Shown here piece after piece: positions 39,400 to 60,632 of a stretch of DNA of 64,000 nt. Numbering within the stretch: position 1 is the stretch's first letter; each line of letters starts with the position of its first letter. The stretch is from an uncultured Actinomycetes bacterium (GTDB taxonomy: Bacteria > Actinomycetota > UBA4738 > HRBIN12). Made by a program: the position numbers and the translations under genes. A model generated the notes under the pieces. The model was not told the DNA's origin. It saw only the letters and a program-made list of their open reading frames with translations, and ran no database searches. The DNA lies in contig CAVSXK010000024.1 of the NCBI GenBank assembly GCA_963731925.1, forward strand, positions 236,624 through 300,623. The letters run 5' to 3'.

Positions 39400-39402
39400 C
39401 GG

Positions 39403-39750: not shown

Positions 39751-39752
39751 CG

Positions 39753-40781: not shown

Positions 40782-40833
40782 CGCTACGGCGGACGCTACC
40801 CGAGCCGGCCTCGGAGCGTCAGTGTTCCCTCAA

Positions 40834-41546: not shown

Positions 41547-41627
41547 CGCGCGGCCAGACATGCGCCGTCATGGCCGAGACCTCGCGGGATTCCATGCCCA
41601 GGTCACGCGCTCGGGTAGCCTTCGGCC

Positions 41628-42972: not shown

Positions 42973-42984
42973 CTCCCCGGCGTT

Positions 42985-43593
42985 CTAGCCGTCACGTCCG
43001 ACGACGAACCAGATCCCGTGGACCGCCTCGTCGCCGAGGTTCCAGAGGCGATGGGGCGTGGTCGAGTCGAACGCGATCGAGTCGCCGGGTCCCAGCTCGT
43101 GCCGCTCGAACCCGAGCTGGACGCCGAGCCGCCCCGAGAGCACGTAGCCGTACTCGCGACCGGGATGCCGCATGAGTCGCTCGTCGGACGCCGACGATCC
43201 GCCGACGTCGTAGATCACGTGGAGGAAGTCGACGTCCTCGTGCTCGTGGCTCGTCAGTCGCTCCCAGATGACGCCGGAGTCGAGCTCGACCACGTGGCGC
43301 TCGGTCGGGTGGACCACCGGCCTCGCGACGACCGCGCTGTCGGACTCGGCTCCCACGGCGGTGGCGATCGACAGCTCGTCGTCGTGAACCCGGAAGACGT
43401 CGTCGAGCGAGACGTCCAGCTCGGTCACGATGGCGTACAGCGTGCTCACGGAGGGCTTGGACTGACCCGACTCGATCTGCGAGATCAGGCTGGCCGACAC
43501 GCCGAGCCGGCGCGCCAGCTCGCGCTGGCTGATCCGCGCTCGTTCTCGCTCTTCGCGCAGGCGCGAGCCGAGGTCACCGAGCTCACCTGCCAT
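42985..43593 (-). CDS. XRE-HTH + cupin transcriptional regulator (copy 1)
   Basis: ISQRELARRLGVSASLISQIESGQSKPSV; cupin HPGREYGYVLSG..GDSIAFDSTTPH. Confidence 0.9.
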   Translation of the reverse strand: MAGELGDLGSRLREERERARISQRELARRLGVSASLISQIESGQSKPSVSTLYAIVTELDVSLDDVFRVHDDELSIATAVGAESDSAVVARPVVHPTERHVVELDSGVIWERLTSHEHEDVDFLHVIYDVGGSSASDERLMRHPGREYGYVLSGRLGVQLGFERHELGPGDSIAFDSTTPHRLWNLGDEAVHGIWFVVGRDG

Positions 43594-43639
43594 GTCGCTC
43601 CTCACCGCGGCGCCAACATCAGATCGTGGTCGCTCATCA

Positions 43640-46069
43640 TCAGATGCCCGGGAGCTTGAAGCCAGACTTGGCGACGACGTAGTCCCTGGACTCGGCGGCC
43701 ATCCGCCTCACGGCCGGCCAGTCGACGTGGAGCAGTCGACCGTGGCGTTTCATCACCCGTCCGGCGATGAGGACCGTGTCGACGTTGCCCGTGTCCATCC
43801 CCGTGACGACGGCGGTCGCCGGGTCGTTGAGCGGCGTGACATTGATCCGGTCGGTTCTCAGCATGATCAGGTCCGCCTGCTTGCCAGGGGCGAGCGTGCC
43901 GACCTTGGCGTCGAGACCGTTGGCCCTGGCACCTTCCACCGTTGCGTACTCGAGGACCTCGCGGGCCGCGACGGGCGTCTTGCCCTGGGCGGAGGCGATC
44001 GCGCGCTGCAGGCCCAGTACCGAACGCATCTGGTTGAACATGTCGCCCGGCACGTTGGTCTCGACGTCCACGCTGAGGCTCGGTCGGAGGCCGCGATCGA
44101 GGAACTTCTGGATGGGAGGCATGCCGTGCCCCATCATCATCTCGACCGGCGACGCCAGCGAGACCGTGCCGCCCGTGTCGACGATCATCTGGATCTCGGT
44201 GTCGTTGAGCGTGGTGCAGTGGATGTACGTGGTGTCCGGCCCGAGCAGACCACCCTCGCCGAACTCCTGGACCTTCCCGTCCTGCCCGTAGCTCCCCACC
44301 CCGACGTGCGTCGTGATGCGAGCGTCGGTCTCCCGCGCGAGTTTCCAATGGTCCCGCGTCACCTCGAAGTCGGTGAACTCCGGACCCGGTGCCGCCAGGG
44401 CGAGGGTGAGCTTCTGGTCCTTCGTCGAGAAGTGCTCGGTGGCGGCTCGGACGAACCAGCTCGGTTGGCGCTCCTCCCACTTCCCCCACCACGGGAACCC
44501 GTAGGCGAAGACCGCACGGAGCCCGGAGTCGTTCAGCGCCTGGATCACCGCGTCGGTGTGGGCGGGCGAGCCCTGGATGTGCGACCAGTCGAGCAGGGTC
44601 GTGATACCCGCATCGATCGCCCCGAGCGCCGAGACCAGGTTGCCGACGTACGCGTCCTCGGGTCGGAACGCCGGTGCGAGCTTGTGCAGGACGAACGAGA
44701 TGTAGCTGGTCCTTCCTTCCAGCGGGACGTCGGTCCCGATGTTGCGGAGCAGGCCCTCCCAGATGTGCCGGTGGGAGTCGACGAACCCGGGCATGACGAT
44801 CATGTCCGTCGCGTCGATGACCTCCACCTCCCCGTTCGACAACGCCGGGCCCACGGCGACGATCCGGTCGCCTTCGACGAGCACGTCGCCTCGGGTGAGA
44901 TCGCCGATCGTCGGGTCGAGGCTGAGCACGGTCCCGCCCCGGATCAGCGTCCGTCCCGTCGGCGCGACGCGGAAGTCGGTTCCGCTCGGATAGAAGGCGG
45001 GCAGGTCGGCGGCCTTCGGCGGGCGGCTGCCGACGACCAGCCGCCGGGCCCGCTTGTAGTTCCGCTTCGCGAGCTCCTTGATGTCGCCGAGCTGGAACAG
45101 GACGATCCCGATCAGGACCAGGATGCCGATGATCATCGGTCCGTCGTCCGGTGACAGACCGAGGTACGGCAGGACGGTGATGATGAGCGCGAGGAGGACC
45201 GCTGCGACGGTGCTCCCGAGGAACGTGGCCCGGCCCCCTGCGAGTGACGCGCCTCCCAGGACGGCGGCGGTGATGCTGTTCAGCGCGAAGGTCGAGCCGA
45301 TCGTTGCGTTGCCGATCGGGGATCGGGCCATGACGAAGAACGAGGCCACCGCCGCCAGCACGGCCGCCAGGAGGAGGGCCCGTACCCGGAGCCAGCTCGT
45401 GCTGACCCCGCCGCGTTTCGCCGACCGTTCGTCGAAACCCACCGCCCTCAGCTCGAGACCGGACCCGGAGGCATGGAGCCACAGATCTGCCAGACCCGCC
45501 CCGACGACGACGACGATGAAGGCCACGGGGATCGGTCCGATGCTCGTCGTGAGCACCGACACCAGGTCGGGGCTGATGACGCCCTGGGCCGTCGGTCGCA
45601 TGGTCAGCGAGATCCCGTCCAGGATGCTCAACGTGGCCAGGGTGGCGATGATCGAAGGGATCTTGAGTCCTCGGATCAGGCCGGCGTTGACGAGGCCGAG
45701 GGCGACGCCGCACAGGAGGATGACACCGACCCCGATCAGGATCTGGGGGACCGAAGCCTCGGCGCCGATCAGGAACGAGGCGACGACCACCCCGAGACCG
45801 ATCATGCCACCGACGGAGAGATCGAGATACCCGACGAGGAGCGCATGCGTCTGAGCCATCGCGGCGACGATCAGGGGGAGCGCCAGGATGAGGATCTGTG
45901 AGACGTTGGTGGCGTTGACGAAGCCGGGGAACCGCGCGTTGGTGTACCACAGCAACGCTGCGACCAGCAGGATCTGCAGTGCCACCGGCATCCACAGGCG
46001 GAACCTGACGATCTTCCGCCACTTGTTCTTGTCGCGAGCGTCGCGGATGACCTTCCGAACGGCGCGCAT
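43640..46069 (-). CDS. Sugar-type ABC permease fused to metal-dependent amidohydrolase (copy 1, uninterrupted 809 aa)
   Basis: N-half GYLDLSVG, IPSIIATL, AAVLGGASLAGGR (RbsC-like); C-half LIRGGTV, PGFVDSHRH, ITTHVG, YIHC, LSVDVE, GKQADL. Confidence 0.85.
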   Translation of the reverse strand: MRAVRKVIRDARDKNKWRKIVRFRLWMPVALQILLVAALLWYTNARFPGFVNATNVSQILILALPLIVAAMAQTHALLVGYLDLSVGGMIGLGVVVASFLIGAEASVPQILIGVGVILLCGVALGLVNAGLIRGLKIPSIIATLATLSILDGISLTMRPTAQGVISPDLVSVLTTSIGPIPVAFIVVVVGAGLADLWLHASGSGLELRAVGFDERSAKRGGVSTSWLRVRALLLAAVLAAVASFFVMARSPIGNATIGSTFALNSITAAVLGGASLAGGRATFLGSTVAAVLLALIITVLPYLGLSPDDGPMIIGILVLIGIVLFQLGDIKELAKRNYKRARRLVVGSRPPKAADLPAFYPSGTDFRVAPTGRTLIRGGTVLSLDPTIGDLTRGDVLVEGDRIVAVGPALSNGEVEVIDATDMIVMPGFVDSHRHIWEGLLRNIGTDVPLEGRTSYISFVLHKLAPAFRPEDAYVGNLVSALGAIDAGITTLLDWSHIQGSPAHTDAVIQALNDSGLRAVFAYGFPWWGKWEERQPSWFVRAATEHFSTKDQKLTLALAAPGPEFTDFEVTRDHWKLARETDARITTHVGVGSYGQDGKVQEFGEGGLLGPDTTYIHCTTLNDTEIQMIVDTGGTVSLASPVEMMMGHGMPPIQKFLDRGLRPSLSVDVETNVPGDMFNQMRSVLGLQRAIASAQGKTPVAAREVLEYATVEGARANGLDAKVGTLAPGKQADLIMLRTDRINVTPLNDPATAVVTGMDTGNVDTVLIAGRVMKRHGRLLHVDWPAVRRMAAESRDYVVAKSGFKLPGI

Positions 46070-46160
46070 CGCCCGAGATCTCGCAGGCGCTCGAGGACCT
46101 CTCGGAGCGGGCGAAGGCCGACGCCCTCAAACGCGCGGGGCTCCCGTAGCTCGCCGGTGT

Positions 46161-46768
46161 CTAGCCGTCACGTCCGACGACGAACCAGACCCCGTGCACG
46201 GCCTCGTCGCCGAGGTTCCAGAGTCGGTGCGGGGTGGTCGAGTCGAACGCGATCGAGTCGCCGGGCCCGAGCTCGTGCCGCTCGAACCCGAGCTGGACGC
46301 CCAGCCGCCCCGAGAGCACGTAGCCGTACTCGCGCCGGGGTGACGCATGAGTCGCTCGTCGGGCGAGGAGGAGCCGCCGACGTCGTAGATCACGTGGAGG
46401 AAGTCGACGTCCTCGTGCTCGTGGCTCGTCAGCCGCTCCCAGATGACGCCGGAGGCGAGCTCGACCACGTGGCGCTCGGTCGGGTGCACGACCGGCCCCT
46501 CGACGTCCGCGCTGTCGGTCTCGGCGCCGACGGCGGTCGCGACCGAGAGCTCGTCCTCGTGGACCCGGAAGACGTAGTCGAGCGAGACGCCGAGCTCGGT
46601 CACGATCGCGTAGAGCGTGCTCACGGAGGGCTTGGACTGACCGGACTCGATCTGCGAGATCAGGCTCGCCGACACGCCGAGCCGGCGCGCCAGCTCGCGC
46701 TGGCTGATCCGCGCTCGTTCCCGCTCCTCGCGGAGCCGCGCGCCGAGGTCACCGAGCTCACCTGCCAT
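46161..46768 (-). CDS. XRE-HTH + cupin regulator (copy 2, frameshift near 46340)
   Basis: Near-identical to 42985..43593; one base shorter. Confidence 0.8.
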
Positions 46769-46814
46769 GTCGCTCCTCACCGCGGCGCCAACATCAGATC
46801 GTTGTCCCTCATCA

Positions 46815-49273
46815 TCAGATGCCCGGGAGCTTGAAGCCCGACTTGTCGACGACGAAGTCCCTGGACTCGGCGGCCTTCCGCCTCACCGCCGGCCAGTCGA
46901 CGTGGAGCAGCTCGACCGTGGCGTTTCATCACCCGACCGGCGATGAGGACCGTGTCGACGTTGCCCGTGTCCATCCCGGCGACGACCGCGGTCGCCGGGT
47001 CGTTGAGCGGCGTGACGTTCATCCGGTCGGTGCTCAGCATGATCAGGTCCGCCTGCTTGCCCGGCGTCGAGCGTGCCCACCTTGGCCTCGAGCCCGTTGG
47101 CCCTGGCTCCTTCCACCGTGGCGTAGGCGAGGACCTCGCGGGCCGCGACGGGCGTCTTGCCCTCGGCGGAGGCGATCGCCCGCTGCAGGCCCAGCACCGA
47201 GCGCATCTGGTTGAACATGTCGCCCGGGACGTTGGTCTCGACGTCCACGCTGAGGCTCGGTCGGAGCCCGCGGTCGAGGAACTTCTGGATGGGGGGCATC
47301 CCGTGCCCCATCATCATCTCGACCGGCGACGCGAGCGAGACCGTGCCGCCGGTGTCGACGATCATCTGGATCTCGGTGTCGTTGAGCGTGGTGCAGTGGA
47401 TGTAGGTGGTGTCCGGCCCGAGGAGACCACGCCTCGCCGAACTCCTGGACCTTCCCGTCCTGCCCGTAGCTCCCCACCCCGACGTGCGTCGTGATGCGAG
47501 CGTCGGTCTCCCGCGCGAGTTTCCAATGGTCCCGCGTCACCTCGAAGTCGGTGAACTCCGGACCCGGTGCCGCCAGGGCGAGGGTGAGCTTCTGGTCCTT
47601 CGTCGAGAAGTGCTCGGTGGCGGCTCGGACGAACCAGCTCGGTTGCCGCTCCTCCCACTTCCCCCACCACGGGAACCCGTACGCGAAGACCGCACGGAGC
47701 CCGGAGTCGTTCAGCGCCTGGATCACCGCGTCGGTGTGGGCGGGCGAGCCCTGGATGTGCGACCAGTCGAGCAGGGTCGTGATACCCGCATCGATCGCGC
47801 CCGAGCGCCGAGACCAGGTTGCCGACGTACGCGTCCTCGGGTCGGAACGCCGGTGCGAGCTTGTGCAGGACGAACGAGATGTAGCTGGTCCTTCCTTCCA
47901 GCGGGACGTCGGTCCCGATGTTGCGGAGCAGGCCCTCCCAGATGTGCCGGTGGGAGTCGACGAACCCGGGCATGACGATCATGCCCCTCCGCGTCGATCA
48001 CCTCGACCTCGCCGTTCGACAGGTCCGGCCCGACCGCCAGGATCTTCTCCCCCTCGATCAGCACGTCGCTCGATGGGAGGTCCCCGAGCGCGGGATCCAT
48101 GCTGAGCACCGTCCCGCCGCGGATCAGCGTCTTGCCCGACGGCGCCACGCGGAAGTCGGGGCCGCTCGGGTAGAAGGCCGGGAGCGCGGGGGCCTTGGGT
48201 GGCCGGTTCTTCGTGACCAGACGACGGGCACGCTTGTAGTTGCCCTTGGCGAGCTCCTTCAGGTCGCCGAGCTGGAACAGGACGATCCCGAGCAGCAATA
48301 GGACGCCGATGATCAGCGGCCCATCGTCGGGTGACAGACCGAGGAAGGGCAGGACGGTGATGATGAGCGCGAGAAGGAGCGCCGCCACCGTGCTCCCCAG
48401 GAACGTGGCCCGGCCGCCGGCGAGGGAGGCGCCGCCCAGGACGGCGGCGGTGATGCTGCTCAGGGCGAAAGTGGATCCGATGGTCGCGTTCCCGATCGGG
48501 GACCGGGCCATGACGAAGAACGCGGCCACGGCCGCCAGCACGGCCGACAGGATGAGGGCCCGGACCCGGAGCCGGTTGGTTCTGACCCCTCCCCGTTTGG
48601 CCGACCGCTCGTCGAAGCCCACGGCCCTCAGCGCCAGACCCGATCCGGAAGCATGGAGCCAGAGATCGGCGAGACCCGCCCCGACGACGATGACGATGAA
48701 CGCCACGGGGATCGGTCCGATGCTCGCCGTGAGCACGGATATCAGTCCGGGATCGATGACGCCCTGCGCGGTAGGTCGCATCGTCAGTGAGATCCCGTCC
48801 AGGATGCTCAGCGTGGCCAGGGTGGCGATGATCGAGGGGATCTTGAGTCCCCGGATCAGGCCCGCGTTGACGAGACCGAGGGCGACGCCGCAGACGAGGA
48901 TGACGCCGATCCCGAACAGGATCTGGGGGAGGGAAGCCTCGTCGCCGATCAGGAACGAGGCGATGACCACCCCGAGGCCGATCATGCCGCCGACCGACAG
49001 ATCGAGATACCCGACCAGGAGCGCGTGGGTCTGGGCCATCGCGGCCACGATCAGGGGGAGCGCCAGGATGAGGATCTGTTCGATGTTGTAGGCGTTGACG
49101 AAGCCCGGGAACCGTGAGGTGGTATAGAAGAGCAGCGCTGCGACCAGCAGGACCTGCAGCGCCACGGGCATCCACAGGCGGAACTTGACGATCTTCCGCC
49201 ACTTGTTCTTGTCGCGTGCGTCGCGGAGGACCTTGCGGACGGCGCGGCGCGCTGCGTCGACGCGGCCGCTCAC
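46815..49273 (-). CDS. ABC permease-amidohydrolase fusion (copy 2, several frameshifts)
   Basis: GTG 49273 overlaps the ATPase stop; permease and linker run in frame into TLIRGGTVLSMDP; the rest is in ORFs 47362..47982, 47043..47726, 46883..47365, 46777..47040. Confidence 0.8.
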
Positions 49274-50869
49274 GTCGCCCCGTTCGACGAGGGGCCCCTC
49301 GGCATCGCGACGCCGAGGGGCGATCGCCCCGCCTTGGACAGACCTGGCCCCCGCACCATCGCCTCGACGATGCGCAGCTCGTCGAGCTCGTCGCCGGGGA
49401 TCTCCTCGATGATCTGCCCCCGGGACATGACGAGCACCCGATCGCACAGTCCCGCGAGCTCGATGGGGTCGCTCGACTTCACGAGCATCGCCGTACCCTT
49501 GTTCGGTGCGCGTGCGAAGGGCCTCTGTAGATGTCGAAGCGGGAGCCGACGTCGACACCCTGCGTCGGCTCGTAGGCGAGGATCACCGACGGCTCCTTGA
49601 AGAAGCTGCGGGCAACCGAGACCTTCTGCTGGTTGCCCCCGGAGAGGAACTCGACCGGTTGCTCGATGGATGGCGTTCGGATCTCCAGCTGTTCGACGAG
49701 GTCGGTGACGGCACGCCGCTCCTTGCGTCGCCTCAGGAAGCCGAGCACGGAGAAGCGGCGCAACGATTGGATCGTGGTGTTCACCTTGACGCCGAGCACG
49801 GGCATCAGAGCCTCGTGCTTGCGATCACCGGGCAGCAGCATGACTCCCGCCCCGACCGCTTCATGGGTCGAGATCAGCGACAGCTCCTTGCCGTCGCAGA
49901 CCACCCGTCCCGCTTTCGGCGGCTGGCGGCCGGCCAGGCAGTCGAAGAGCTGAGGCTGCCCGTTGCCTTCGGCGCCGGCGATGCCCACGATCTCGCCGGC
50001 GTCCAGGGTGAAACTGACCGGCCCGAACGACTGGCCCTGGAGGCCGTCGACCACGAGCACCTCGCGGCCCTGGTCCACCTCTGGGGCGGGCGGGGGGAAC
50101 GCGGCCTCGAACGGGCGGCCAACGATCAGCTCGACGAGCTCCGCCTCGGTCGTGGCCCTCGCGTCGAACGTCCCCTGGTTCCTGCCGTCGCGAAGGACCG
50201 TGATCCGGTCGGCGACCTCGAGGACCTCCGGCAGACGATGGCTCACGTACACCACACCGACGCCACGACCGGCTGCAGGCGGCGACGGTCCGGTGCAGAG
50301 CGTCCACCTCGTCCGGTCCCGAGGGCCGTGGTCGGTTCGTCGAGCAGCAGCACCTTCGGATCAGCGACGAGCGCCTTGGCGACCTCGAAGAGCTGGCGGT
50401 CGGCCAGGGTGAGGAAACCCGCCGGGGCGTCCGGGAACAACTCGAGGTCGAGATCGAACTCGGCCAGCAGCTTCCTCGCCCACCGCTTCCTCCTCCAGAA
50501 CGGCGGTCGCCGATCCTCGGGCGCCGCCAGGAAGAGGTTGTTCTTCACGGGTTCGGGCAGGATCAGCGAGGTGTCCTGGTACGCCATGGCCAGGCCCAGC
50601 TTCCTCGCCAGCGCCGGGGAATCCCGGCGAAGGGGTTCGCCCCCGATCCGGACCGTGCCCAGATCGGGGTCGACGAACCCGCTGGCGATCCCGAGGAGGG
50701 TCGACTTCCCCGACCCGTTCTCGCCGACGACGGCGTGAACCTCGCCGGCGCGGCAATCGAAGCTGACATCCGTCAGCGCTCGAACCGCCCCGAACTGTCG
50801 CGAGACCCCGCTCAGCTCGAGGACCAGGTCGCCGCTGGTCGACCCTCCTCCGGGATCACCCTTGCCCAT
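49270..50869 (-). CDS. Sugar ABC transporter ATP-binding protein, RbsA-like double NBD (frameshifted)
   Basis: GENGSGKST, LLLDEPT, GAEGNGQ, LSGGNQQKV, EPTQGVDVG, SSDPIELAGLCDRVLV. Confidence 0.88.
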
Positions 50870-52198
50870 CAGCTGGCGAACATCGCCTGCAGGACCGGGT
50901 CCGGCACCAGCGAGGTCCCGGAAACCGCCTCGTTCACACGGTTGGGATCGCAGTCCGCCGCCGTCACCTGCCGCATGACGTGTGGCACGACGACCTCAGC
51001 CGGGATCTCGGCGCCCTGGAGCGACATCATCGCCGCCGTGACGCCGACCCGTGACTGGAAGTTGCCACCGGCCGAGTACCAGATGTTGTAGGTCGGCTCG
51101 CCGCGCTCGGCCCAGTCGCAGAACAGGTTCTGCTCGTCGGTGCGCAACGCGAGGGTCAGGTTCTTCACCGGTATGCCCAGATCCTCGTACGTCTGCAATC
51201 CGATGTACATGCCGTCGGCGTACTCGTACGCCCAACCCTTGATGTCCGGGTCGGTCGTCAGCAACCCCTGGAAGACGCCGGGGATCGCCGGGGGATACCA
51301 ACTGGTGTCACCGGTCGTGCTGTTCCGAGTTGGCCGGCGGGTTGACCAGATTGATCCCGTCCGCGAGCCCGGAGATGGCACACTGCTGCCAGCCCAGGGA
51401 CAGGGCGTTGCCCGGGGTTCCGCCGAGGAGCGCCACCTCCCCGGTGCCGACGCCGTCGTCCAGGACCTCCGCGAAGCTGTTGCCCGAGGGCACACAGGTC
51501 CTCGCCGACGACGGTCAGATAGTCCTCACCGGGAACGAGGGCCCCTTCCTGACCGGGCAGACCGACCCAGCCTGCCGAGAACGGGACGTACGGGATGCCC
51601 GCGTCGTCGGCTTCCTTGATGGCATCGGCGATGGCCACACCCATGTCGGGATAGCCGACGATGAAGTCGACTCCGCGCTGGATCAGGAACCGGATGTCGT
51701 TGGCGTGGACGGCCGGATCGGGGTTGAAATCGGCCTCGGTGGAGACGATGGTCCCGATCTCCGGGTAGGTGAGTGCCTGGAGGATCGCCTCCATGTGGCT
51801 CACCGCACGCCAGACGTTCACCGTGTCTCCGCCGCCGTCGGCGTAGCCCATCACCACTTCGCCACCGGTTCCCGTGTCACACTCCTTGCTGCTCCAACAC
51901 TCCATCGCCTTGTCGATGGTGGCTTGATCGAGATCCTGGTCGGCCCGCGCGACGGAAGCCAGGATGATGTTCCAGCTCGCCTCATCCGACGGCTCCACGG
52001 GGCCCAGGGCCTTCTCCACCAGCGCCGGGTCGGCATCGGTGCTCTCCCCGAACTCCGCGAGCGCCCCGGTGGCGCCGGTGGCGGTGCTCACCTGTCGGTG
52101 GCTCCGGTGGCCGTCGTCTCGTCGTCGTCGTCACCGCCACACGCCGCTGCCACCAACGCGAGCGCCGCGATGACTGCGGCGATCCTGATCCGTTGCAT
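50869..52198 (-). CDS. ABC substrate-binding lipoprotein (periplasmic binding protein type I, frameshifted)
   Basis: MQRIRIAAVIAALALVAAAC lipobox, GGAGGA RBS; DIRFLIQRGVDFIVGYPD, AIKEADDAGIPYV. Confidence 0.78.
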
Positions 52199-52276
52199 GT
52201 TCCTCCTCCCTGAGTCGATCTCCTCTTGTCACGGATCGGTGTCTACGTCACATAGGCGCCTCCTTCGTCACATCGA

Positions 52277-53320
52277 TCACCTCGGACCGGGGACGGGTTG
52301 CGTCTGCGAGTCGTCCGGGCGTCTCCGCTCTCGAAGGAGCTGCTCGACGCCGCGGATGATCCGATCGCCCGAAACGAGCATCCCTCCGATGATGACGAGA
52401 CCGAACACCACGAACTGGAGCGAGGTGGGGAGCCCCATCACCCGCAGCATCTGGTTGAGACCGGTGAGGAACAGAGCGGCCACGAACGTGGACAACGGGC
52501 TGGCCAGGCCCCCGGTGAGGGAAGCGCCACCGATCACCACGGCCGCGATCGGGCCCAGGAGATACGTCGTGCCGACGGCGACTCCCGGGTTGCGGAGAAG
52601 CCCCGCCAGCGCCATTCCGGCGATGGCGTAGAAGATCGCGGCCACCACGTAGACCAGGATCTGGTTCAGGTTCACCCGGACACCCACGACATGGGACGCG
52701 ACCGGGTTGGCCCCCACCGCCTGGAACCTGCGACCGACCGCCGTGTAGCGAAGGCCGACGATCAGGACGATCGTGAGCCCGACGCCGATCCAGAAGACGG
52801 GGCTGACACCGAAGATGCGGGTGGAGGTCCAGTCGGACAGACCCGGTCGGCACCCGGCTCTGGACCGGGAACGTGCTTCCATAGCGATTCACGACGCCGA
52901 TCACGATCAGACCCACCGCAAGGGTGGTGATGAGTGCGTTCAGTTTGAGCCCGCCGATCAGGATGCCGTTGACGAGTCCGATGACCGCGGCGACGGCGAT
53001 CGCGATGGCGATGGCGATCCAGATGTTCTCGTTCGATCCGTCCCCGACACCGACCATGATCACCGCCGCCAGGCTCATGGTGCCGGGGACGCTGAGGTCG
53101 ATCCCGCCGGTCATGATCACCAACATCTGGCCAAGAGCGGTGATGCCCAGGACCGCCCCGTAGGGAGCGATGGCGCGCACGGCGACACCGCTCAGGGTCG
53201 CGGGGGCCCAGATGGACGCCACGATGAGGAGGAGGAGCAGGGCGATGTACACGGGCATGTAGCGGGAAGCCACGACGAACGACGTGAGCGCGGGGGAGCG
53301 GGTCCGCGATCGCTGCTCAC
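52277..53320 (-). CDS. Sugar ABC transporter permease (frameshifted)
   Basis: GQMLVIMTGGIDLSV, GRRFQAVGANP, IAAVVIGGASLTGG. Confidence 0.85.
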
Positions 53321-54630
53321 CCGGTCACCTCCCGGTGCCGCGCCGACGATCGAGACCGGAGCCATCGGCCACGCGCTGTCGGGCCTCGGTAGCCAGGCTC
53401 CGCGCGCGCTGCACGTCCGCTTCGAGGACGCCCTCGCGCATGAGCGACACGTCCCCCGACGAACACCCAGTCGACGTTGGATGTGTCCATGCCCCAGACG
53501 ACCGCGCCGATCGGGTCGTTGATCGGGAAGACGTTCGGGCGGTCGGCCCGAAGCACGAGGACGTCGGCCTGCATCCCCAGCTCGAGTGAACCGGTCACGC
53601 CACCCAACCCCGCCACTCGGGCGCCGTCGGCCGTGGCGAAGCGGATCACGTTGCGCGTGCTCATCAGCTCGGGAAGGCCGCCCTTGCCCGGCCAGCTTGC
53701 GATCGAAGACCGTGGCGTGCTGCATCGAGATCGCCGCCCGCATCTGCGCGAACAGGTCGCCGGGCGCGACCCGCTCGTCGTCGACCGCGAGGCCCGGCCG
53801 CACGTCGTTGTCGATCAGGCTGCTGGATCGGCGGCGGTCCGAGAGCCGCCCGCCATCTCGCTCGACCGGCGCGATCGAGATCGCGGCGCCGGAGGCCGCG
53901 ATGGCATCGACGTCCGTCGTCGTCGAGCTGGGAGCCGTGGACGACGCGTGACGTCGTCACCGAGGAGCCCGCGCTCGGCCAGCTCGGAGATGGTGCCCGT
54001 TCGCAGCTTCGGCGTGGGCGTGGATGCGCAGGCCGAGCTCCCGGGCACGCGCCCATCGCCGGCGCGCGGCTCCGTCCCAGGCGACGGACCCGATGGGCGG
54101 TCGCTGCCGAACGCGATCGTCGTGGACGGGCCGGCCCGATGCCCGCAGGCGGACGGCCCGCGCGCTCGTCGCGCCCGGAGGCCGCGTCGACGAACACGGT
54201 GCGAAGGCCGGCGTCGGCGTGCGCCTGCAGCGCGGCGTCGGCGAGGTCGTCGTCCGGCCCCCGTTGAGGACCAGTCGACGACGGTGGTGATGCCGGCTTC
54301 GGCGGCGCCGAGCAACCCGATGAGGGTGGCGGCGTAGACGTCGTCGGCCGTAGAGCCGTTCGGGCCGCCGTCGGCCGGGTTGGCGTGCGCGTCCCGGCTC
54401 GCCCGCGTTGCGGAACAAGGACGTCCAGGCGTGTCGGTGGGTGTCGACGAAGCCCGGCATGACGATCGTGTCGGTGGCGTCCACCTGCTCGGCGTCGCGG
54501 GCGCGCAGGCCGGTGACCGACCTCGGCGACCACGTCTCCGTCGATGAGGACGTCGGCCTGCTTGTGATTGGGGGTCCGCTGCGCCGAGCGTGAGGACGCA
54601 CCCGCCGGCGAGCAGGACCTTGGAGGTCAC
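53317..54630 (-). CDS. Amidohydrolase family protein (heavily frameshifted; possibly pseudogene)
   Basis: KVLLAGGCVLTLG, MPGFVDTHRHAW, AAEAGITTVVDW, GDLFAQMR, DPIGAVVWGMDTSNVDWV; paralog of the fused amidohydrolase. Confidence 0.75.
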
Positions 54631-54885
54631 GTGCGGTCCTCGCGCATCGTCCACGCTCCGGGCGGAGCCGCGGCCGACGACGGGGTCCGCGAGATCTCTC
54701 CCCCGGCCGCTCTCGAACACACGCCTGATCCGAGCGCCCCTCCACCGTTCAGGGACACTACACATGTTGTCTCGGAAGCGCTAGGGGCACGGCACGGCGT
54801 CCGGCAGAGATGCAGCCGCCACTGGTGTGTGCATATCATTCACCCTTAACGACTCACCGCGACGCGGACCGAACGGAGGCCAGGG

Positions 54886-56142
54886 ATGACGGACGAGTTC
54901 CCGGTCGCGACCACGCCCTCACCGGGGCTGCACGGTGTCGACTGGGAGAACCGTGTCGACTTCGCCCGGCTCCGCGACTACCGCTTGGCCCGGGTCAGGG
55001 AGCAGCTGGATGCCTCGGACCTGGGTGCGATCCTCCTGTTCGAGACCAGCAACATCCGCTACGCCACCTCGACCCACATCGGGTACTGGGCGTTCAACAA
55101 GGGCGAGCGGTACGCGCTGGTCACGAGGTCGGGTCCGCCGCGCATCTGGGACTTCGGATCGGCCGCGAAGGCGCACCGACTGCAGCTCCCGCAGTGGTAC
55201 GACGAGACCAACTCGGTCGGAGGCAACACCGGCCTGCAGGGGGCGATCTCGCCGGCCGTCGGGCTCCAGCGCCGCGCCGCCGAAGAGCTCCGCTCGGTGC
55301 TGAAGGAGGACGGGGTCGGCGACATGCCACTCGGCGTCGACCTCGCCGAGACCTCGGTGTTCCTCGAGCTCCAGCGCGCCGGCATCGACGTCCGCGACGG
55401 ACAGCAGGTCATGATGCTCGCCCGCGAGATCAAGAGCCAGGACGAGATCACGCTCCTCACCCAGGCGTGCGCGATGGTCGACGGCGTCTACCAAGACATC
55501 TTCGAGTTCCTGAAGCCCGGCGTTCGCGAGAGCCAGGTCGTGGCGCTCGCGCACGCGCGACTGTTCGAGATGGGCTCCGAGTTCGTCGAGGCGATCAACT
55601 CGATCGCGGGCGAGCGCTGCAGCCCGCACCCGCACGTGTTCTCGGACCGGCTGATCCGTCCGGGCGATCAGGCGTACTTCGACATCATCCACGTGAACAA
55701 CGGCTACCGGACCTGCTACTACCGCACGTTCGTGGTCGGGCGAGCGACCCAGGCGCAACGGGACGCGTTCGCGCGGTCGCGCGAATGGATGGACGCCGCG
55801 ATCGACCTCGTGAAGCCCGGCAACACCACCGATCAGCTCGCGGCGGTGTGGCCCAAGGCCGAGGAGTTCGGGTTCCAAGACGAGTTCGACGCGTTCGGGC
55901 TGCAGTTCGGGCACGGGGTCGGCGTCGGCCTGCACGAACGGCCGATCATCAGCCGCCTGAACTCGTTCGACGAGCCGATCGAGCTCAAGGAGGGGATGCT
56001 CTTCGCCCTCGAGACCTACTGCCCGGCGACGGACGGACGATCGGCCGCCCGGATCGAGGAGGAGATCGTCGTCACGGCCGCGGGCCCGCAGATCATCACG
56101 CTCTTCCCGTGCGAAGAGCTCATGGTCGCCAACGAGTACTGA
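54886..56142 (+). CDS. M24 (Xaa-Pro peptidase/creatinase fold) enzyme
   Basis: NIRYATS, REIKSQDEI, FGHGVG, FALETY, ARIEEE. Confidence 0.88.
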   Translation: MTDEFPVATTPSPGLHGVDWENRVDFARLRDYRLARVREQLDASDLGAILLFETSNIRYATSTHIGYWAFNKGERYALVTRSGPPRIWDFGSAAKAHRLQLPQWYDETNSVGGNTGLQGAISPAVGLQRRAAEELRSVLKEDGVGDMPLGVDLAETSVFLELQRAGIDVRDGQQVMMLAREIKSQDEITLLTQACAMVDGVYQDIFEFLKPGVRESQVVALAHARLFEMGSEFVEAINSIAGERCSPHPHVFSDRLIRPGDQAYFDIIHVNNGYRTCYYRTFVVGRATQAQRDAFARSREWMDAAIDLVKPGNTTDQLAAVWPKAEEFGFQDEFDAFGLQFGHGVGVGLHERPIISRLNSFDEPIELKEGMLFALETYCPATDGRSAARIEEEIVVTAAGPQIITLFPCEELMVANEY

Positions 56143-56155
56143 TCGAGGATCTCGA

Positions 56156-57157
56156 GTGACCAAGGCGTCTCCACCGATAGCCGACGAGACGGTTCGCCTC
56201 GGGATGTACCGGATGATGCAGGAGGCCCGCCTGTTCGAGAAGCGGGCGCAGGACCTGTTCCTCGAGGGGCTCATCAAGGGCACGTCGCATCTGGCGCTCG
56301 GGCAGGAGGCGGTCGCGGCGGGGTTCGCCGCGGCGCTCCGGCCCGAGGATCTCGTCTTCTGTACCTACCGCGGCCACGTGCACACGCTGCTCCGCGGCGC
56401 GCCGATGAGCGCCCTCATGGCGGAGCTGATGGGCAGGGCGAGCGGGATCTGCGGCGGCAAGGGCGGATCGATGCACCTCACCGACGTCTCGCACGGCGCG
56501 ATGGGCTCCTACGCGATCGTCGGGGCGCACATGCCGATCGCGGCCGGGGCGGCGTGGGCGGCGATGGAGCGGGGCACCGGGCAGGTCGTCGTGTGCTTCT
56601 TCGGGGACGGGACCACGAACATCGGCGCGTTCCACGAAGCGCTGAACATGGCCGTCGTCTGGCGGCTCCCCGTCGTGTACGTCTGCGAGAACAACCTCTA
56701 CATGGAGTACACGCCGATCGGGGAGGTGACGGCGGTCGCCAACCCCGCCGCCGACCGGGCGTCGGCCTACGGGCTCGAGTCCATCCTCGTGGACGGGAAC
56801 GACGTGGACGAGGTGTACGAGACGGCCACACGCCTCGTCGATCGGGCGCGAGAGGGCGGCGGCCCCGCCCTGGTGGAGGCGAAGACCTATCGACACGGAG
56901 GGCATTCGCGGGCCGACCCCGCCAAGTACCGCCCCGACGACGAGGTGAAGGCGTGGCTGGATCGAGACCCGATCCCCACCTATCGCGAGCGCCTGCTCGC
57001 CTCCGGGGTCGAGGCCGCCGACATCGACCGGGTCGAACGCGATGCACTCGAGCTGGTCGACCGGGCGACCGAGGAAGCGAAGGCGGGACCCTTCCCGAGT
57101 CCCGACGCGCTGGAGACCGAGCTCTGGGCCGACGGGGGGTCCTCGTGGCGGAGCTGA
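56156..57157 (+). CDS. TPP-dependent dehydrogenase E1 alpha subunit
   Basis: HLALGQEA, YRGH, GKGGSMH, GDGTTNIGAFHE..ENN, YRHGGHS. Confidence 0.92.
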   Translation: MTKASPPIADETVRLGMYRMMQEARLFEKRAQDLFLEGLIKGTSHLALGQEAVAAGFAAALRPEDLVFCTYRGHVHTLLRGAPMSALMAELMGRASGICGGKGGSMHLTDVSHGAMGSYAIVGAHMPIAAGAAWAAMERGTGQVVVCFFGDGTTNIGAFHEALNMAVVWRLPVVYVCENNLYMEYTPIGEVTAVANPAADRASAYGLESILVDGNDVDEVYETATRLVDRAREGGGPALVEAKTYRHGGHSRADPAKYRPDDEVKAWLDRDPIPTYRERLLASGVEAADIDRVERDALELVDRATEEAKAGPFPSPDALETELWADGGSSWRS

Positions 57158-58119
57158 CGTACCGGGAGGCCGTGAGCCGGGCGATCGCCCAGGAGATGGA
57201 GCGCGATCCGAGCGTGTACTTCATCGGGGAGGACGTCGCGGCCGCCGGTGGTGTCTTCAAGACGACCGAGGGCCTGCTCGAGCGCTTCGGCCCGAGCCGC
57301 GTCCGGGATACGCCGATCTCCGAGCAGGCGATCATCGGTGCCGTCATGGGCGCGGCCATGAACGGGCTGCGACCCGTGGCCGAGCTGATGTTCAGCGACT
57401 TCTTCGCCGTCTGTTGGGACCTCATCGCGAACCAGATCGCGAAGACCCGGTACATGACCAACGGGCAGGTGGCGTTGCCGCTCGTCATCCGCACGGCGAA
57501 CGGGGGCGGGGTCCGCTTCGGGGCGCAGCACTCGCAGAGCGTCGAGGGCTGGGCCATGGCGATCCCCGGGCTCAAGGTCGTGGTGCCGTCGACGCCGGTG
57601 GACATGATCGGGCTCTTCGCGGCCGCCGTCCGCGATCCCGACCCGGTCATCGTGGTCGAACCCAAGGTGCTGTACGCGAGCAAGGGCGAGGTCCCCGACG
57701 GCGAGATCGTCGACCGCCTCGGCTCGGCCAACGTGGTGCGGACGGGCGATGACGTCACGATCTGCGCGCTCGGCGCGATGGTGCCCAAGGCGTTCGAGGC
57801 CGCCGAGCGGCTGGCGACGGACGGCATCGACGCCGAGGTGATCGACGTGCGGTCGCTGGTACCGCTGGACGTCACGACGATCCTGGACTCGGTGGCGAAG
57901 ACCGGACGCTTCGTCACCGTCGAGGAAAGCCCTCGCCTGTGCGGGTGGGGCGCGGAGGTCGCCTCGATCGTGGCCGAGGAGCGGTTCTTCGACCTGGACG
58001 GCCCGCTGGTGAGGATCACGACGCCGCACCTCCCGCTGCCCGCGGCCGACGCGCTCGAGGACCTCGCCATCCCGTCGGTGGACGCCATCGCCGAGCGGGT
58101 GCGAGGGACGATGGGCTGA
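57145..58119 (+). CDS. TPP-dependent dehydrogenase E1 beta subunit
   Basis: IGEDV..GGVF, RDTPISE, GAQHSQS, IPGLKVV. Confidence 0.92.
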   Translation: MAELTYREAVSRAIAQEMERDPSVYFIGEDVAAAGGVFKTTEGLLERFGPSRVRDTPISEQAIIGAVMGAAMNGLRPVAELMFSDFFAVCWDLIANQIAKTRYMTNGQVALPLVIRTANGGGVRFGAQHSQSVEGWAMAIPGLKVVVPSTPVDMIGLFAAAVRDPDPVIVVEPKVLYASKGEVPDGEIVDRLGSANVVRTGDDVTICALGAMVPKAFEAAERLATDGIDAEVIDVRSLVPLDVTTILDSVAKTGRFVTVEESPRLCGWGAEVASIVAEERFFDLDGPLVRITTPHLPLPAADALEDLAIPSVDAIAERVRGTMG

Positions 58120-59030
58120 TGGCGCGTCACGCCGTTCGACCGCGGAGTGAGGCGACGTGGGGTGTGCCGACGAGCCTCGAGGGGCACACGGAGGGGTTCC
58201 GTCGCTGGACGGCGGTGGACGAGAGCGCCGGCGCCGTCCACACGGGGTTCGGGATCGCCGAGTTCGACCCGGGAGGTCGGCTCGACTGGCACGTCCATTC
58301 GTACGAGGAGAGCCTGTACGTCATCGAGGGTGAGATCACGCTCTTCACGTCGGAGACCGCCGTCCTCCTGCGGACCGGCGACTACGGGTTGCTCCCCGTC
58401 GGACAAGCGCACGCGCTCGCGAACAACGGCTCGGACGTCGCTCGAGTGGCGGCGCTGTCGGCGCCCCAGCCGCGGCCCGCCCACGGCGGCGACACGTACT
58501 TCGTCGCAGGGCTGCCCGAGCTCGAGCCCGTCATCGTGGACGCCAGGGACCCGCGGACGCGGGCGTTCGGGCACATCGACCCCGGGCACATGGACCCGGC
58601 CAAGCAGAGCCAGGAGCTCCTTGCCGCGTCGGCGAGCATGCGGACGGCTTTGCTCGTCTACAGCGGGATCACCGTGAAGATGATGATCGACTCGGACCTC
58701 GGCGCGCAGCTGTCGACGATGTTCATGGTGCAGTACGAGGGGCTGAAGGGCGTCATCGGCGGGCACGACCACCCGCTGGAGGAGACGTACCTCATCCTCG
58801 ACGGCGTGGTCGATGCCACGTTCGACGGCGAGCGGTACCGGCTCGAGCCGGGCGACGTCGCGTGGGCGGGCGTCGGATGCGTCCACGCCTTCGCGAACCC
58901 GGCCGAGGCGCCGGTCCGATGGCTCGAGACGCAGGCGCCGGCGCCGCCGGCCCGGCACTCGTACCGGTTCGAGCGCGACTGGCACTACCTGCGGGACGCG
59001 ATCGGGGCAGAGACGAAGGAGGTTCGATGA
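58119..59030 (+). CDS. Bicupin protein
   Basis: WHVHSYEESLYVIEG..QAH and GHDHPLEETYLILDG..CVH. Confidence 0.85.
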   Translation: MARHAVRPRSEATWGVPTSLEGHTEGFRRWTAVDESAGAVHTGFGIAEFDPGGRLDWHVHSYEESLYVIEGEITLFTSETAVLLRTGDYGLLPVGQAHALANNGSDVARVAALSAPQPRPAHGGDTYFVAGLPELEPVIVDARDPRTRAFGHIDPGHMDPAKQSQELLAASASMRTALLVYSGITVKMMIDSDLGAQLSTMFMVQYEGLKGVIGGHDHPLEETYLILDGVVDATFDGERYRLEPGDVAWAGVGCVHAFANPAEAPVRWLETQAPAPPARHSYRFERDWHYLRDAIGAETKEVR

Positions 59031-59728
59031 CGGACGGTGCGGTGGTGGTGGTCGGCGGGACGTCCGGTCTGGGCAAGGAGGTGGCGCGCCATTACGTCCA
59101 GGCCGACCGCGAAGTGGTGATCACCGGGCGCGACCCGACCCGAGGGAGCTCGGTCGCCGCGGAGCTCGGCGGGAAGACCACGGAGCTCGCGTTCGACCTG
59201 TCGGTGCCGAAGGAGATCGCACCCGCGCTCGAAGGGGTGGGCGATGTGAGCCGCCTGGTCCTGGCCGGGGTCCACCGCGACCTCAACACGATGCGCGAAT
59301 ACGACGTCGACGCGGCGGTCGCCCTGGTGACCCTGAAGCTCGTCGGCTACACCGAGGTCGTGCACGCACTGCTCGATCGCCTGCACGACGACTCGTCGAT
59401 CCTGATCTTCGGCGGTCTCGCCAAGGAGCGTCCGTACCCCGGCTCCATGACCGTGACGACCATCAACCACGGCGTGGACGGCCTCGTCCGCTCGCTCACG
59501 TCCGAGCTCAAGCCGATCCGGGTGAACGCGCTCCACCCAGGGATCGTCGAGGACTCGCCGTTCTGGGCGGGCAAGACCGAGGCCCTCGACGCCCACCGGG
59601 CCAGGACGACGACCGGACGCCTGGTGCAGATGCAGGACGTCGTAGACGTGGCGATCCTGATGCTCGAGAACCCCTCGATCGCCGGCGCCGAGTTCCGGGT
59701 TGATTCCGGTTGGTCGATCCCGTTCTGA
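59027..59728 (+). CDS. SDR family oxidoreductase (atypical active site)
   Basis: VVGGTSGLG, IRVNALHPG; no YxxxK. Confidence 0.85.
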   Translation: MTDGAVVVVGGTSGLGKEVARHYVQADREVVITGRDPTRGSSVAAELGGKTTELAFDLSVPKEIAPALEGVGDVSRLVLAGVHRDLNTMREYDVDAAVALVTLKLVGYTEVVHALLDRLHDDSSILIFGGLAKERPYPGSMTVTTINHGVDGLVRSLTSELKPIRVNALHPGIVEDSPFWAGKTEALDAHRARTTTGRLVQMQDVVDVAILMLENPSIAGAEFRVDSGWSIPF

Positions 59729-59732
59729 GGCC

Positions 59733-60632
59733 GTGAGCCGATCGGACCCCGTCCCGACGGTCGCCGTCCTCGGTACCGGGCGGATGGGCGGCGCCATGGT
59801 CGGCACGCTCCGCCGGGCCGGCTTCGACGTCGTCGCCTGGAACCGCGACCGTGGGAAGTGCCACGCGGTCGCCCACACGTCGGGTGCCGAGGTCGCCGAG
59901 GGCGCCGCCGAGGCCGCGTCCGCGGCGGACGTGGCGATCACGAGCCTCGCCGACGATGCGGCCGTCGAGGCCGTCTACGCGGACGCGGTCGAGGGATTCC
60001 ACGCCGGGCAGGTCGTCCTCGAGATGAGCACGATCGCGCCGGAGACCGTTCGCAAGGTCGCACGGTCCGTGCAGGGACGCGGCGCCACCATGCTCGACGC
60101 TCCCGTTTCGGGCAGCGTCCCCGTCGTCGAGCGAGGTGAGCTCCTGATCATGGTCGGCGGTGACCCCGACGCGCTCGAGCGCGCCCGCCCGGTGCTCGAG
60201 GCGCTGTCCTCCACGATCATCCATGTCGGCGAGCTCGGGACCGGCGCGACGATGAAGCTCGCGGTCAACGCGCTCGTCCACGGGCTCGCCGTGGCGCTCT
60301 CGGAATCGCTCGTGCTGGCCGAGCGCGCAGGCGTAGAACGGACGACCGCATACGAGGTCTTCGCGTCGGGCGCCGCGGCGGCGCCGTTCGTCCTGTACAA
60401 GCGGGCGGCGTTCGAGCGGCCGGATGAGACGCCCGTCGCGTTCAGTCTCGAGCTCGTCGCCAAGGATCTGGACCTGATCCTCGCGCTCGCCCAGAGGGTG
60501 GGTGCGCCGATGCCGCAGGCGGACACCAACCGGGATGAGGTGCGCTCGGCGCTTGCCGCCGGGATGGGCAAGCGCGACATGAGCGCCCTGGCCGGATACC
60601 TCCGAGGGATCGAACGATCTGACCGAAGCTGA
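59733..60632 (+). CDS. NAD(P)-dependent beta-hydroxyacid dehydrogenase (3-hydroxyisobutyrate dehydrogenase family)
   Basis: LGTGRMG, WNR, MSTIAP, DAPVSGS, MKLAVN, KDL. Confidence 0.88.
   Translation: MSRSDPVPTVAVLGTGRMGGAMVGTLRRAGFDVVAWNRDRGKCHAVAHTSGAEVAEGAAEAASAADVAITSLADDAAVEAVYADAVEGFHAGQVVLEMSTIAPETVRKVARSVQGRGATMLDAPVSGSVPVVERGELLIMVGGDPDALERARPVLEALSSTIIHVGELGTGATMKLAVNALVHGLAVALSESLVLAERAGVERTTAYEVFASGAAAAPFVLYKRAAFERPDETPVAFSLELVAKDLDLILALAQRVGAPMPQADTNRDEVRSALAAGMGKRDMSALAGYLRGIERSDRS

Follow-up and report, generated by a model that had tools for sequence, protein, structure and literature searches.

The 64,000-nucleotide window, i.e., the whole stretch of DNA that was analysed, raises the question of whether the permease of an ABC importer is genuinely joined in one polypeptide to a metal-dependent amidohydrolase and, if so, what such a protein does. 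The ORF singled out by the sequence-only reading (fusion ORF copy 1, Table 1) encodes 809 aa from an ATG start and combines, as claimed, a permease, a linker, and an amidohydrolase: Pfam BPD_transp_2 (PF02653) matches residues 56–320 with 63.8 bits (gathering cut-off 26.8), and Amidohydro_1 (PF01979) matches residues 424–772 with 109.9 bits (cut-off 25). The linker sequence and the metal-ligand motifs quoted in that reading are all located in the ORF, namely KELAKRNYKRARRL at residues 331–344, DSHRH at 431–435, TTHVG at 586–590, YIHC at 615–618, and SVDVE at 666–670. The permease, which had been called complete, does contain the BPD_transp_2 domain but not the native N-terminus. In orthologues and in copy 2, the gene starts with GTG and encodes 817 aa, with MS(E/G)RVDAARRAVRK as the N-terminal sequence; the ATG of the flagged copy is a chance start codon at the junction of a duplication. 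One protein found elsewhere, P0002, is nearly identical and retains the native start.

Table 1. Features of the fusion locus and its surroundings, in window positions
Feature	Positions	Strand	Basis or remark
HTH_XRE + cupin regulator (PuuR-like), copy 1	42985..43605	-	Intact; Pfam, NCBIfam, tblastn
Fusion ORF copy 1, permease–amidohydrolase	43640..46069	-	Without the native first 8 codons
Amidohydrolase domain, residues 373–809	43643..44953	-	NCBIfam NF006056, invariant columns, Foldseek
Linker, residues 331–372	44954..45079	-	AF2, alignment, dN/dS
Transmembrane domain, residues 27–330, ~10 predicted TM helices (BPD_transp_2)	45080..45991	-	Pfam, hydropathy, AF2 helices
Junction of tandem duplication	46067..46100		Unit 42924–46066 recurs as 46101–49246
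HTH_XRE + cupin regulator, copy 2	46127..46780	-	Frame break near 46334; cupin part outside ORF
Fusion gene copy 2	46818..49270	-	Native operon position, native GTG start
Tandem-NBD ABC ATPase (RbsA/AraG-like)	49273..50869	-	Four frame pieces (three frame changes) here
Substrate-binding lipoprotein (Peripla_BP_4)	50872..52198	-	Three frame pieces here
Permease 1 (second, unfused permease)	52280..53318	-	One frame break here; orthologue intact, 346 aa
Amidohydrolase 2 (stand-alone paralogue)	53317..54643	-	At least 3 frame pieces here
M24 enzyme, divergent (DddP/creatinase/ectoine-hydrolase-like)	54886..56142	+	Intact
Catabolic genes: E1 alpha, E1 beta, bicupin, SDR, HIBADH-like reductase	56156..60632	+	

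The locus contains a 3.18-kb tandem duplication, of which the flagged ORF is the downstream member, truncated at its 5' end; the two units are 91.4% identical over 3149 columns with 9 one-base gaps (blastn). The second copy had been described as keeping the in-frame linker, and residues 2–420 (permease, linker, and the first amidohydrolase residues) indeed lie in a single frame with 87% identity; however, the rest of its amidohydrolase is distributed over five more frame pieces, with 5 one-base insertions. One-base indels found in this assembly alone break the native fusion copy and every other transporter gene (46101–54700); their sequence is therefore no guide to function in this very genome. 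A BBE/FAD oxidase gene at 1539–2952 is also split by scattered indels in this assembly.

For the window only, it is marginally probable that the duplication and the frameshift cluster at 46101–54700 are assembly artefacts: two strain variants would have been placed in series within a poorly polished stretch, and the organism itself would possess a single, unbroken gene of 817 codons within an unbroken operon. The second copy is present in 0 of 80 related loci, and a contig from soil run X1 links position 46063 to 49267 with 23 other letters between them, i.e., the single-copy form, and has a native-length 5' end. Contigs from runs X1–X4 omit single letters at 49504, 49525, 50272, 51483, 53668, 53686, 53690, and others, close to the frame changes, and 11 of the 12 indels listed (of 106) are extra bases in the window. 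P0002 and the split oxidase gene point the same way. However, the X1–X4 contigs represent related strains in other samples and are thus silent on this genome's own reads, the best share of sampled words in any read run being 0.39. The two copies also differ by 9%, in a mosaic with 72–100% identity per 100 columns that would also arise from an old, real duplication with gene conversion, and a second copy also occurs in one related genome (G173), where it lies on a different contig.

The fusion itself is genuine and conserved. Among the 120 best database clusters, 118 are 817 aa long and all 120 contain both PF02653 and PF01979, which rules out chance. In all 80 fetched loci (soil Acidimicrobiia MAGs, produced by several different assemblers, judging by the contig names), the fusion lies in one frame with a single HSP spanning the junction, and no split revertant was found among them; neither these loci nor the 120 best clusters have a stop codon in the linker. 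At least 74 of the 294 genomes of the class Acidimicrobiia carry the fusion, including three genomes flagged as unpublished (G038, G117, and G171; 71/291 without them). The earlier view that a read error is unlikely is borne out by these counts.

Every part of the fusion protein, the linker included, is under purifying selection. Estimated over 200 random pairs drawn from 39 genes with 817 codons each, dN/dS amounts to 0.11 both in the helix extending TM10 and in the enzyme domain, the best-conserved part of the protein, against 0.23 in the transmembrane domain (TMD) and 0.31 in the coil linker. The length of the linker is fixed in 78 of 79 sequences, the other one having a 2-aa gap. Production of a separate enzyme from a conserved internal start was considered and rejected: positions 376 and 377 are start-type codons in only 20/39 and 17/39 genes, respectively, and an SD-like word precedes them in 16/39 genes only.

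AF2 models show ten long helices in the permease part, with a pLDDT of 87.2 and a pTM of 0.82 when the TMD is modelled by itself. Its nearest solved folds are the TMDs of the type II importers HmuU and BtuC, which are weak matches (E 5e-3, TM 0.48–0.57), and no solved structure matches the permease by sequence at E 0.01 or better. The named sugar permease equivalogs of NCBIfam are missed by a wide margin (AraH, 86.6 vs 378; LsrC, 79.8 vs 388; YjfF, 78.3 vs 363; RbsC, 70.1 vs 398). The hydropathy analysis counts 11 Lys/Arg in residues 1–27 and another 11 in residues 330–375. At the start of the linker, a basic helix prolongs TM10 to about residue 345–348 (H307–348 and H309–345 in the AF2 models), and the remainder is a coil of ~24 residues. 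With ~10 predicted TM helices and two K/R-rich ends, the positive-inside rule and the models suggest that the enzyme end is cytoplasmic, as anticipated. The full-length AF2 model has a pTM of 0.57, and its inter-domain geometry is unreliable.

The C-terminal domain belongs to NF006056 (PRK08204), with 522.1 bits over residues 373–803 against a curated cut-off of 391 (524 bits in a genome-wide search); no member above the cut-off occurs in 14 control genomes. The family bears the name "hypothetical protein", and the subfamily is uncharacterised. The HxH, His, and Asp ligands noted from the ORF alone are in place: H433 and H435 after strand 1, H588 and H617 after strands 5 and 6, and D668 after strand 8, accompanied by E643, D494, and H497. 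The five metal-ligand positions are invariant in 78/78 fused sequences, together with these last three, which are E651, D502, and H505 in the numbering of the 817-aa form. The tethered domain is a complete and apparently active mononuclear metallo-amidohydrolase.

Foldseek places the domain closest to the TRZ/ATZ-type enzyme AtzA (PDB 4v1x, E 1e-24), and the relatives AtzA, TrzN (3ls9), 4f0r (an MTA/SAH deaminase homologue), 7ww2 (an 8-oxoguanine/isocytosine deaminase), and 3hpa share the fold with E values of 1e-24 to 1e-20 and TM-scores to target of 0.80–0.84. They also have the HxH/His/His/Asp ligands in common with the fusion, but sequence identity is only 20–26%. A further difference concerns the HxxE motif, whose catalytic Glu belongs to TRZ/ATZ-type deaminases and chlorohydrolases. 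At this position after strand 5, taken from the alignment to 3hpa, a Val is found in 78/78 fused sequences, and the chemistry may therefore differ from deamination. As the stand-alone PRK08204 representatives also lack the residue (Glu in 1/59), its absence is a subfamily trait and not a sign of decay. The domain reaches 70.6 bits for 5-methylthioadenosine/S-adenosylhomocysteine deaminase (NF012037; cut-off 779), and other equivalogs of NCBIfam are also far under their cut-offs (e.g., 173 vs 609). The source names "MTA/SAH deaminase" and "cytosine/adenosine deaminase-related" are not supported.

The fusion gene is always the last of a five-gene operon, where it follows, in this order, the stand-alone amidohydrolase 2, permease 1, the lipoprotein binding protein, and the tandem ATPase. 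In loci with enough flank, the ATPase is present in 71/71, the binding protein in 67/67, permease 1 in 61/61, and amidohydrolase 2 in 54/54. The intact ATPase orthologue has 531 aa with two ABC_tran stretches, and its best NCBIfam rows are AraG, XylG, and RbsA (AraG, 382 vs a cut-off of 689). The binding-protein orthologue, of ~440 aa, has a signal peptide with a Cys lipobox, and no solved relative was found for it by sequence. Amidohydrolase 2 orthologues are intact in 52 of 54 extracted ORFs; of the other two, one has an internal stop and one is read through into the permease gene. The stop of amidohydrolase 2 and the start of permease 1 overlap by 4 nt in 50/52 loci, and this translational coupling points to selection for a one-to-one assembly of enzyme and permease. 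The β8 Asp is absent from amidohydrolase 2 in 14/52 orthologues, so that this paralogue may serve as a partner without catalysis or may be in the process of being lost.

On the other strand, beyond amidohydrolase 2, lie an M24 enzyme, whose closest structures are of the DddP type (1e-19), and a set of catabolic genes. As clues to the substrate, these neighbours were unproductive: no equivalog was found in NCBIfam or the PDB for the M24 enzyme, bicupin, SDR, reductase, or binding protein, the matches of the bicupin being weak.

The stand-alone amidohydrolase had been proposed as a partner subunit of the fused one. It is frame-broken in this assembly but accompanies the fusion wherever the flank permits the count, and a complex prediction for the tethered domain with amidohydrolase 2 gives an ipSAE of 0.95 against 0.38 for the best control, with at least 89% of contacts agreeing between runs and a partner pLDDT of at least 84. 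The mark applied is reached by 58/80 solved complexes and 2/110 mismatched pairs. This result supports pairing of the two enzymes, although the pass may reflect memory of solved homodimers of the superfamily. The prediction leaves heterodimer and homodimer unseparated. In an alignment of the fused enzymes, the stand-alone enzymes, and permease 1, MAFFT placed the permease 1 rows on the enzyme domain, and this alignment was dropped.

The CUT2 importers (TC 3.A.1.2; RbsABC, AraFGH, LsrACDB, and YtfQRT-YjfF) are among the closest known systems. They are alike in a BPD_transp_2 permease with ~10 TM helices (predicted for the fusion), in a single ATPase with two ABC_tran domains, and in a Peripla_BP_4 binding protein, and Lsr and Ytf have two different permeases, as in the fusion operon. 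Yet one permease here carries a 437-residue C-terminal enzyme domain, and no equivalog cut-off is reached, those of AraH and AraG included. CUT2-family permeases in databases are also fused to ATPases, second permeases, and binding proteins, in line with the earlier statement that sugar-type permeases fuse with ATPases or other permeases. Among 120 listed long relatives of permease 1, enzyme fusions number five: P0358, a 706-aa CUT2 permease with a C-terminal strictosidine-synthase/SMP-30-lactonase-like domain, and four singleton read-throughs. Unlike the present fusion, none of these forms a conserved family. In the literature searched, no paper matched PRK08204 or BPD_transp_2 combined with Amidohydro_1; at the level of titles and abstract openings, the papers best matching a permease–amidohydrolase fusion, and likewise those best matching transport metabolons and ABC importers, contained nothing relevant. 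The fusion gene is apparently undescribed so far.

The explanation that we consider probable as a whole is that of a CUT2-type importer subunit with a tethered hydrolase acting on the cargo at the inner face of the membrane. The fusion would contribute one membrane subunit, out of two, to a binding-protein-dependent importer. The binding protein would hand over a putative small nitrogen-containing compound, whose ATPase-powered passage inward would run through a heterodimer of permease 1 and the fused permease (permease 2). The tethered hydrolase, probably forming a heterodimer with its soluble paralogue, would then perform the first hydrolytic C–N step on the imported substrate. The tether may set the enzyme:transporter stoichiometry and the location and hold free substrate low, and transport and catalysis could be coupled, possibly kinetically.

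A simpler account, which seems rather unlikely, is that the tether does no more than keep an ordinary soluble catabolic enzyme at the same place or dose as its transporter, without channelling, gain in trapping, or effect on transport, and that the fusion was fixed once through a lost stop codon and kept because it is harmless. In favour of this account, the fusion forms a single cluster at 50% identity, P0121 being the only full-length match in the top 150 from 1.84 billion representatives, and sequence matches in the ESM Atlas are confined to the fusion's own cluster. In a close relative (G024), a catabolic cluster of this kind includes a separate, 50% identical PRK08204 enzyme and lacks such a transporter next to it, and the coil linker is the least constrained segment. 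However, the linker has a fixed length, the constraint on its helical part equals that on the enzyme, split revertants are lacking in all 80 loci, and the translational coupling of permease 1 to amidohydrolase 2 also speaks against a harmless accident.

It is still less probable that the amidohydrolase fold serves as a ligand-sensing or regulatory module, e.g., for trans-inhibition, rather than as a cargo enzyme. Regulatory domains are known on ABC importers, e.g., at the C-terminus of some ABC ATPases, where they mediate trans-inhibition, and both the missing HxxE Glu and the loss of the β8 Asp in the soluble paralogue would agree with a non-catalytic role. Yet the full ligand set of the tethered domain is invariant, the Glu is equally lacking in the stand-alone enzymes, and the enzyme domain is conserved more strongly than the rest of the protein. 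Finally, an artefact of sequencing or gene calling that merged two neighbouring genes can be dismissed, since, despite the indel errors in this assembly and the singleton read-throughs of amidohydrolase 2 into permease 1 in databases (P0272, P0273, P0274, and P0282), it is refuted by the cluster, locus, and class-genome counts and by selection on a linker without a stop.

Physical coupling of uptake to the first metabolic step is an old question, usually argued from weak, transient complexes. In PTS group translocation and in vectorial fatty-acid acylation, the cargo undergoes chemical modification on arrival inside; these systems are of a different kind from ABC importers, and none of their enzymes is a hydrolase that forms one chain with an ABC permease. 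Here, both functions are joined in one polypeptide that has been retained by many species within a soil lineage that is abundant and uncultured, and the paralogous, unfused enzyme–permease pair in the same operon provides a built-in comparison. A stronger form of the tethered-hydrolase importer, in which the enzyme heterodimer is docked under the permease pair as an obligatory transport–hydrolysis machine and the cargo is never free in the cytoplasm, is doubtful. If true, each permease would have its own enzyme, the translocation path would lead the cargo straight into an active site, and the system would represent an ABC-driven analogue of group translocation. The fusion also offers access to the PRK08204 enzyme subfamily and to a putative pathway for nitrogen compounds in soil Acidimicrobiia.

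The flagged ORF lies in a window of ~69% G+C, and its Pfam domains are listed in the table below. The C-terminal part is assigned to NF006056/PRK08204 (NCBIfam, 522 bits vs a cut-off of 391), a model titled 'hypothetical protein'. For the N-terminal part, the closest NCBIfam models are AraH, LsrC, YjfF, and RbsC, all far under cut-off. Every motif quoted in the sequence-only reading was found in the ORF.

Features of the window and of the flagged ORF
Feature	Position	Strand	Basis or detail
BBE-type FAD oxidase, two overlapping ORFs	1539-2952	-	FAD_binding_4 in 2206-2952, BBE in 1539-2285
TadA-like deaminase and ureohydrolase	38923-40781	-	
Duplicated unit, downstream	42924-46066		
Flagged ORF (fusion copy 1)	43640-46069	-	ORF reading; ATG start, 809 codons
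Duplicated unit, upstream	46101-49246		
Second fusion gene (copy 2)	46818-49270	-	
BPD_transp_2	residues 56-320 of flagged ORF		Pfam
Amidohydro_1	residues 424-772 of flagged ORF		Pfam
Conserved enzyme residues	H433, H435, H588, H617, D668, E643, D494, H497		Window protein numbering

The same reading held that the fusion is unlikely to be a read error, and this is borne out by its recurrence. Among 5.8 billion clusters searched, the 120 best matches (89–100% identity) all contain both domains, and 118 are 817 residues long. Species-representative genomes contain 387 stretches encoding a relative; in each of the best 80 (77–93% identity), a single HSP crosses the permease/enzyme junction. These 80 loci belong to soil MAGs tagged Acidimicrobiia or Actinomycetota, with a few otherwise tagged, and their contig names indicate several different assemblers. 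Of the 294 genomes of the class, counting that of the window, 68 gave an uninterrupted match spanning at least residues 107–779, and a further 6 gave partial matches spanning the junction; leaving out three carriers flagged as unpublished (G038, G117, and G171), 71 of 291 genomes are carriers. The fusion is present in four of eight families, and in family f7 the fusion query found unfused enzymes only (~48–50% identity). The best 150 of 1.84 billion 50%-identity representatives include one full-length fused protein (P0121, 822 residues, 79% identity), the rest being fragments or stand-alone amidohydrolases of ~420–540 residues at no more than 57% identity. In the ESM Atlas, the two-domain set is confined to the fusion's own cluster of 63 members. 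Given this distribution, the join appears to have formed within one lineage, which then retained it.

In the window itself, a 3.18-kb unit containing the fusion gene and an HTH-cupin regulator is duplicated in tandem, the copies sharing 91.4% identity with nine one-base gaps. The copies are mosaic (72–100% identity per 100 columns, with ~500 bp nearly identical), a pattern due either to gene conversion or to two strains having been assembled into a chimera. Copy 2, in the upstream unit, comes after the ATPase gene, which is the arrangement in all other genomes; it starts at the native GTG and has five one-base insertions within the enzyme part. The flagged ORF belongs to the downstream unit, where homology starts at native codon 9 and the ATG lies at the duplication junction; this copy may not be the working gene. 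All six genes in 46101-54700 have at least one one-base frame break, and the genes on either side are intact. At several places near the frame changes, contigs from four soil metagenome runs do not have single bases present in the window, and a contig of one such run (X1) shows the single-copy arrangement. No second fusion copy was found in the 80 related loci; genome G173 has one on a different contig (C7:2564-4986), and its frame changes near residue 395. Elsewhere in the window, a BBE-type FAD oxidase is split, likely by another one-base assembly indel, so scattered indels are present in other parts of the assembly. An assembly artefact is slightly favored for the duplication and the frame-breaking indels.

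Hydropathy and two AlphaFold2 models (full-length with alignment A6, pLDDT 76.5, pTM 0.57; transmembrane domain (TMD) only with alignment A7, pLDDT 87.2, pTM 0.82) give ten long helices in residues 23–345. Residues 1–27 and 330–375 each contain 11 Lys/Arg, so by the positive-inside rule both TMD ends would be cytoplasmic. Among solved structures, the type II importer subunits HmuU and BtuC come closest in fold to the TMD model, a weak match (E 5e-3, TM 0.41–0.57), and a sequence search for solved relatives of the permease found none. The last helix extends beyond the membrane to about residue 345–348 (motif GD[IL]KELVKRNY[KR]RARR) and is followed by a coil of ~24 residues, the enzyme's first strand beginning at residue 373. 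Since the unfused permease 1 of the operon likewise terminates in a basic helix, the permease part extends to about residue 350, leaving only a short true joint. The linker has the same length in 78 of 79 sequences. For 200 random pairs from 39 genes of 817 codons, dN/dS was 0.21 in the N-terminus, 0.23 in the TMD, 0.11 in the TM10 extension helix, 0.31 in the coil, and 0.11 in the enzyme.

The solved proteins closest to the enzyme domain, both in sequence and in fold, are AtzA, TrzN, an MTA/SAH-deaminase homologue, an 8-oxoguanine/isocytosine deaminase, and 3hpa (20–26% identity). The HxH pair, two further His, and the Asp are invariant in all 78 fused sequences, as are E651, D502, and H505 (817-residue numbering). 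The HxxE Glu used by these solved relatives is Val in all 78, and this position varies among 59 stand-alone PRK08204 representatives; a deaminase or chlorohydrolase label was therefore not given. No PRK08204 member above cut-off occurs in any of 14 control genomes, and a literature search found the model name in no paper. A third, unfused PRK08204 paralogue (608–624 bits, 47–50% identity to the fused domain) occurs within or close to the same catabolic cluster at L011:17150-18745 (genome G009) and L094:7544-8914 (G024), the called ORF of the former having a long, Arg-rich extension at its N-terminus.

Where flanking sequence suffices, the fusion is always the final operon gene, after amidohydrolase 2 (54/54), permease 1 (61/61), a binding protein with a lipoprotein signal (67/67), and a tandem ATPase (71/71). 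In 50 of 52 loci, there is a 4-nt overlap between the amidohydrolase 2 stop and the permease 1 start. As judged from gene arrangement, each permease would thus have a single amidohydrolase linked to it, through translational coupling in one pair and through fusion in the other. Amidohydrolase 2 is faster-evolving (48–68% identity to the G005 protein). Its orthologues (alignment A4) keep HxH in 52/52 and the strand-8 Asp in 38/52, with Gly in 12 and another residue in 2, and 4 of the 52 lack the strand-6 His; it may be drifting to a non-catalytic partner. Nearby, in varying order, are genes for a PuuR-like HTH-cupin regulator, a DddP/creatinase-like M24 enzyme, E1 alpha, E1 beta, a bicupin, an SDR, and an HIBADH-like reductase, none of which named a substrate. 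G024 shares this neighbor set, its PRK08204 enzyme being unfused and no such transporter lying alongside. Beside the window's regulator, 40800-42985 gave no Pfam match. A TadA-like tRNA adenosine deaminase (167 bits vs a cut-off of 150) adjoins an agmatinase-family ureohydrolase (TIGR01230, 198 bits vs 174).

The stand-alone amidohydrolase had also been proposed as a partner subunit. Because the window's amidohydrolase 2 is frame-broken, the G005 pair was folded: residues 368–817 of the L033 protein (alignment A3) with the amidohydrolase 2 encoded in that genome (A4). The predicted complex scored 0.95 vs 0.38 for the best control, with contact agreement between runs of at least 89% and partner pLDDT of at least 84. 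Of 80 solved complexes, 58 pass the mark, as do 2 of 110 mismatched pairs; these counts are only rough with our own alignments. The modelled pairing agrees with the proposal. Since the deposited structures of family relatives contain two or more chains, the pass may stem from likeness to them, and the score does not separate a heterodimer from a homodimer.

Known fusions among long permease 1 relatives involve ATPases, second permeases, or binding proteins, and the listings from a literature search gave no description of a permease-amidohydrolase fusion. Among the long relatives listed, only five enzyme fusions occur: P0358 and four singletons in which amidohydrolase 2 reads through into permease 1. 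Such singletons, all enzyme first, are P0272, P0273, P0274, P0282, and L053:3664-6126; because of the 4-nt overlap, a one-base indel fuses the two genes, and they may be errors or real. P0358 (706 residues; cluster of 3 member sequences) is a second, unrelated permease-enzyme fusion, in which a CUT2 permease (BPD_transp_2, residues 60–328) carries a C-terminal lactonase-like propeller (residues 367–602, strictosidine-synthase/SMP-30-gluconolactonase-like). The flagged gene type, for its part, is real and conserved: a CUT2 ABC importer variant with a tethered hydrolase, confined to one lineage.
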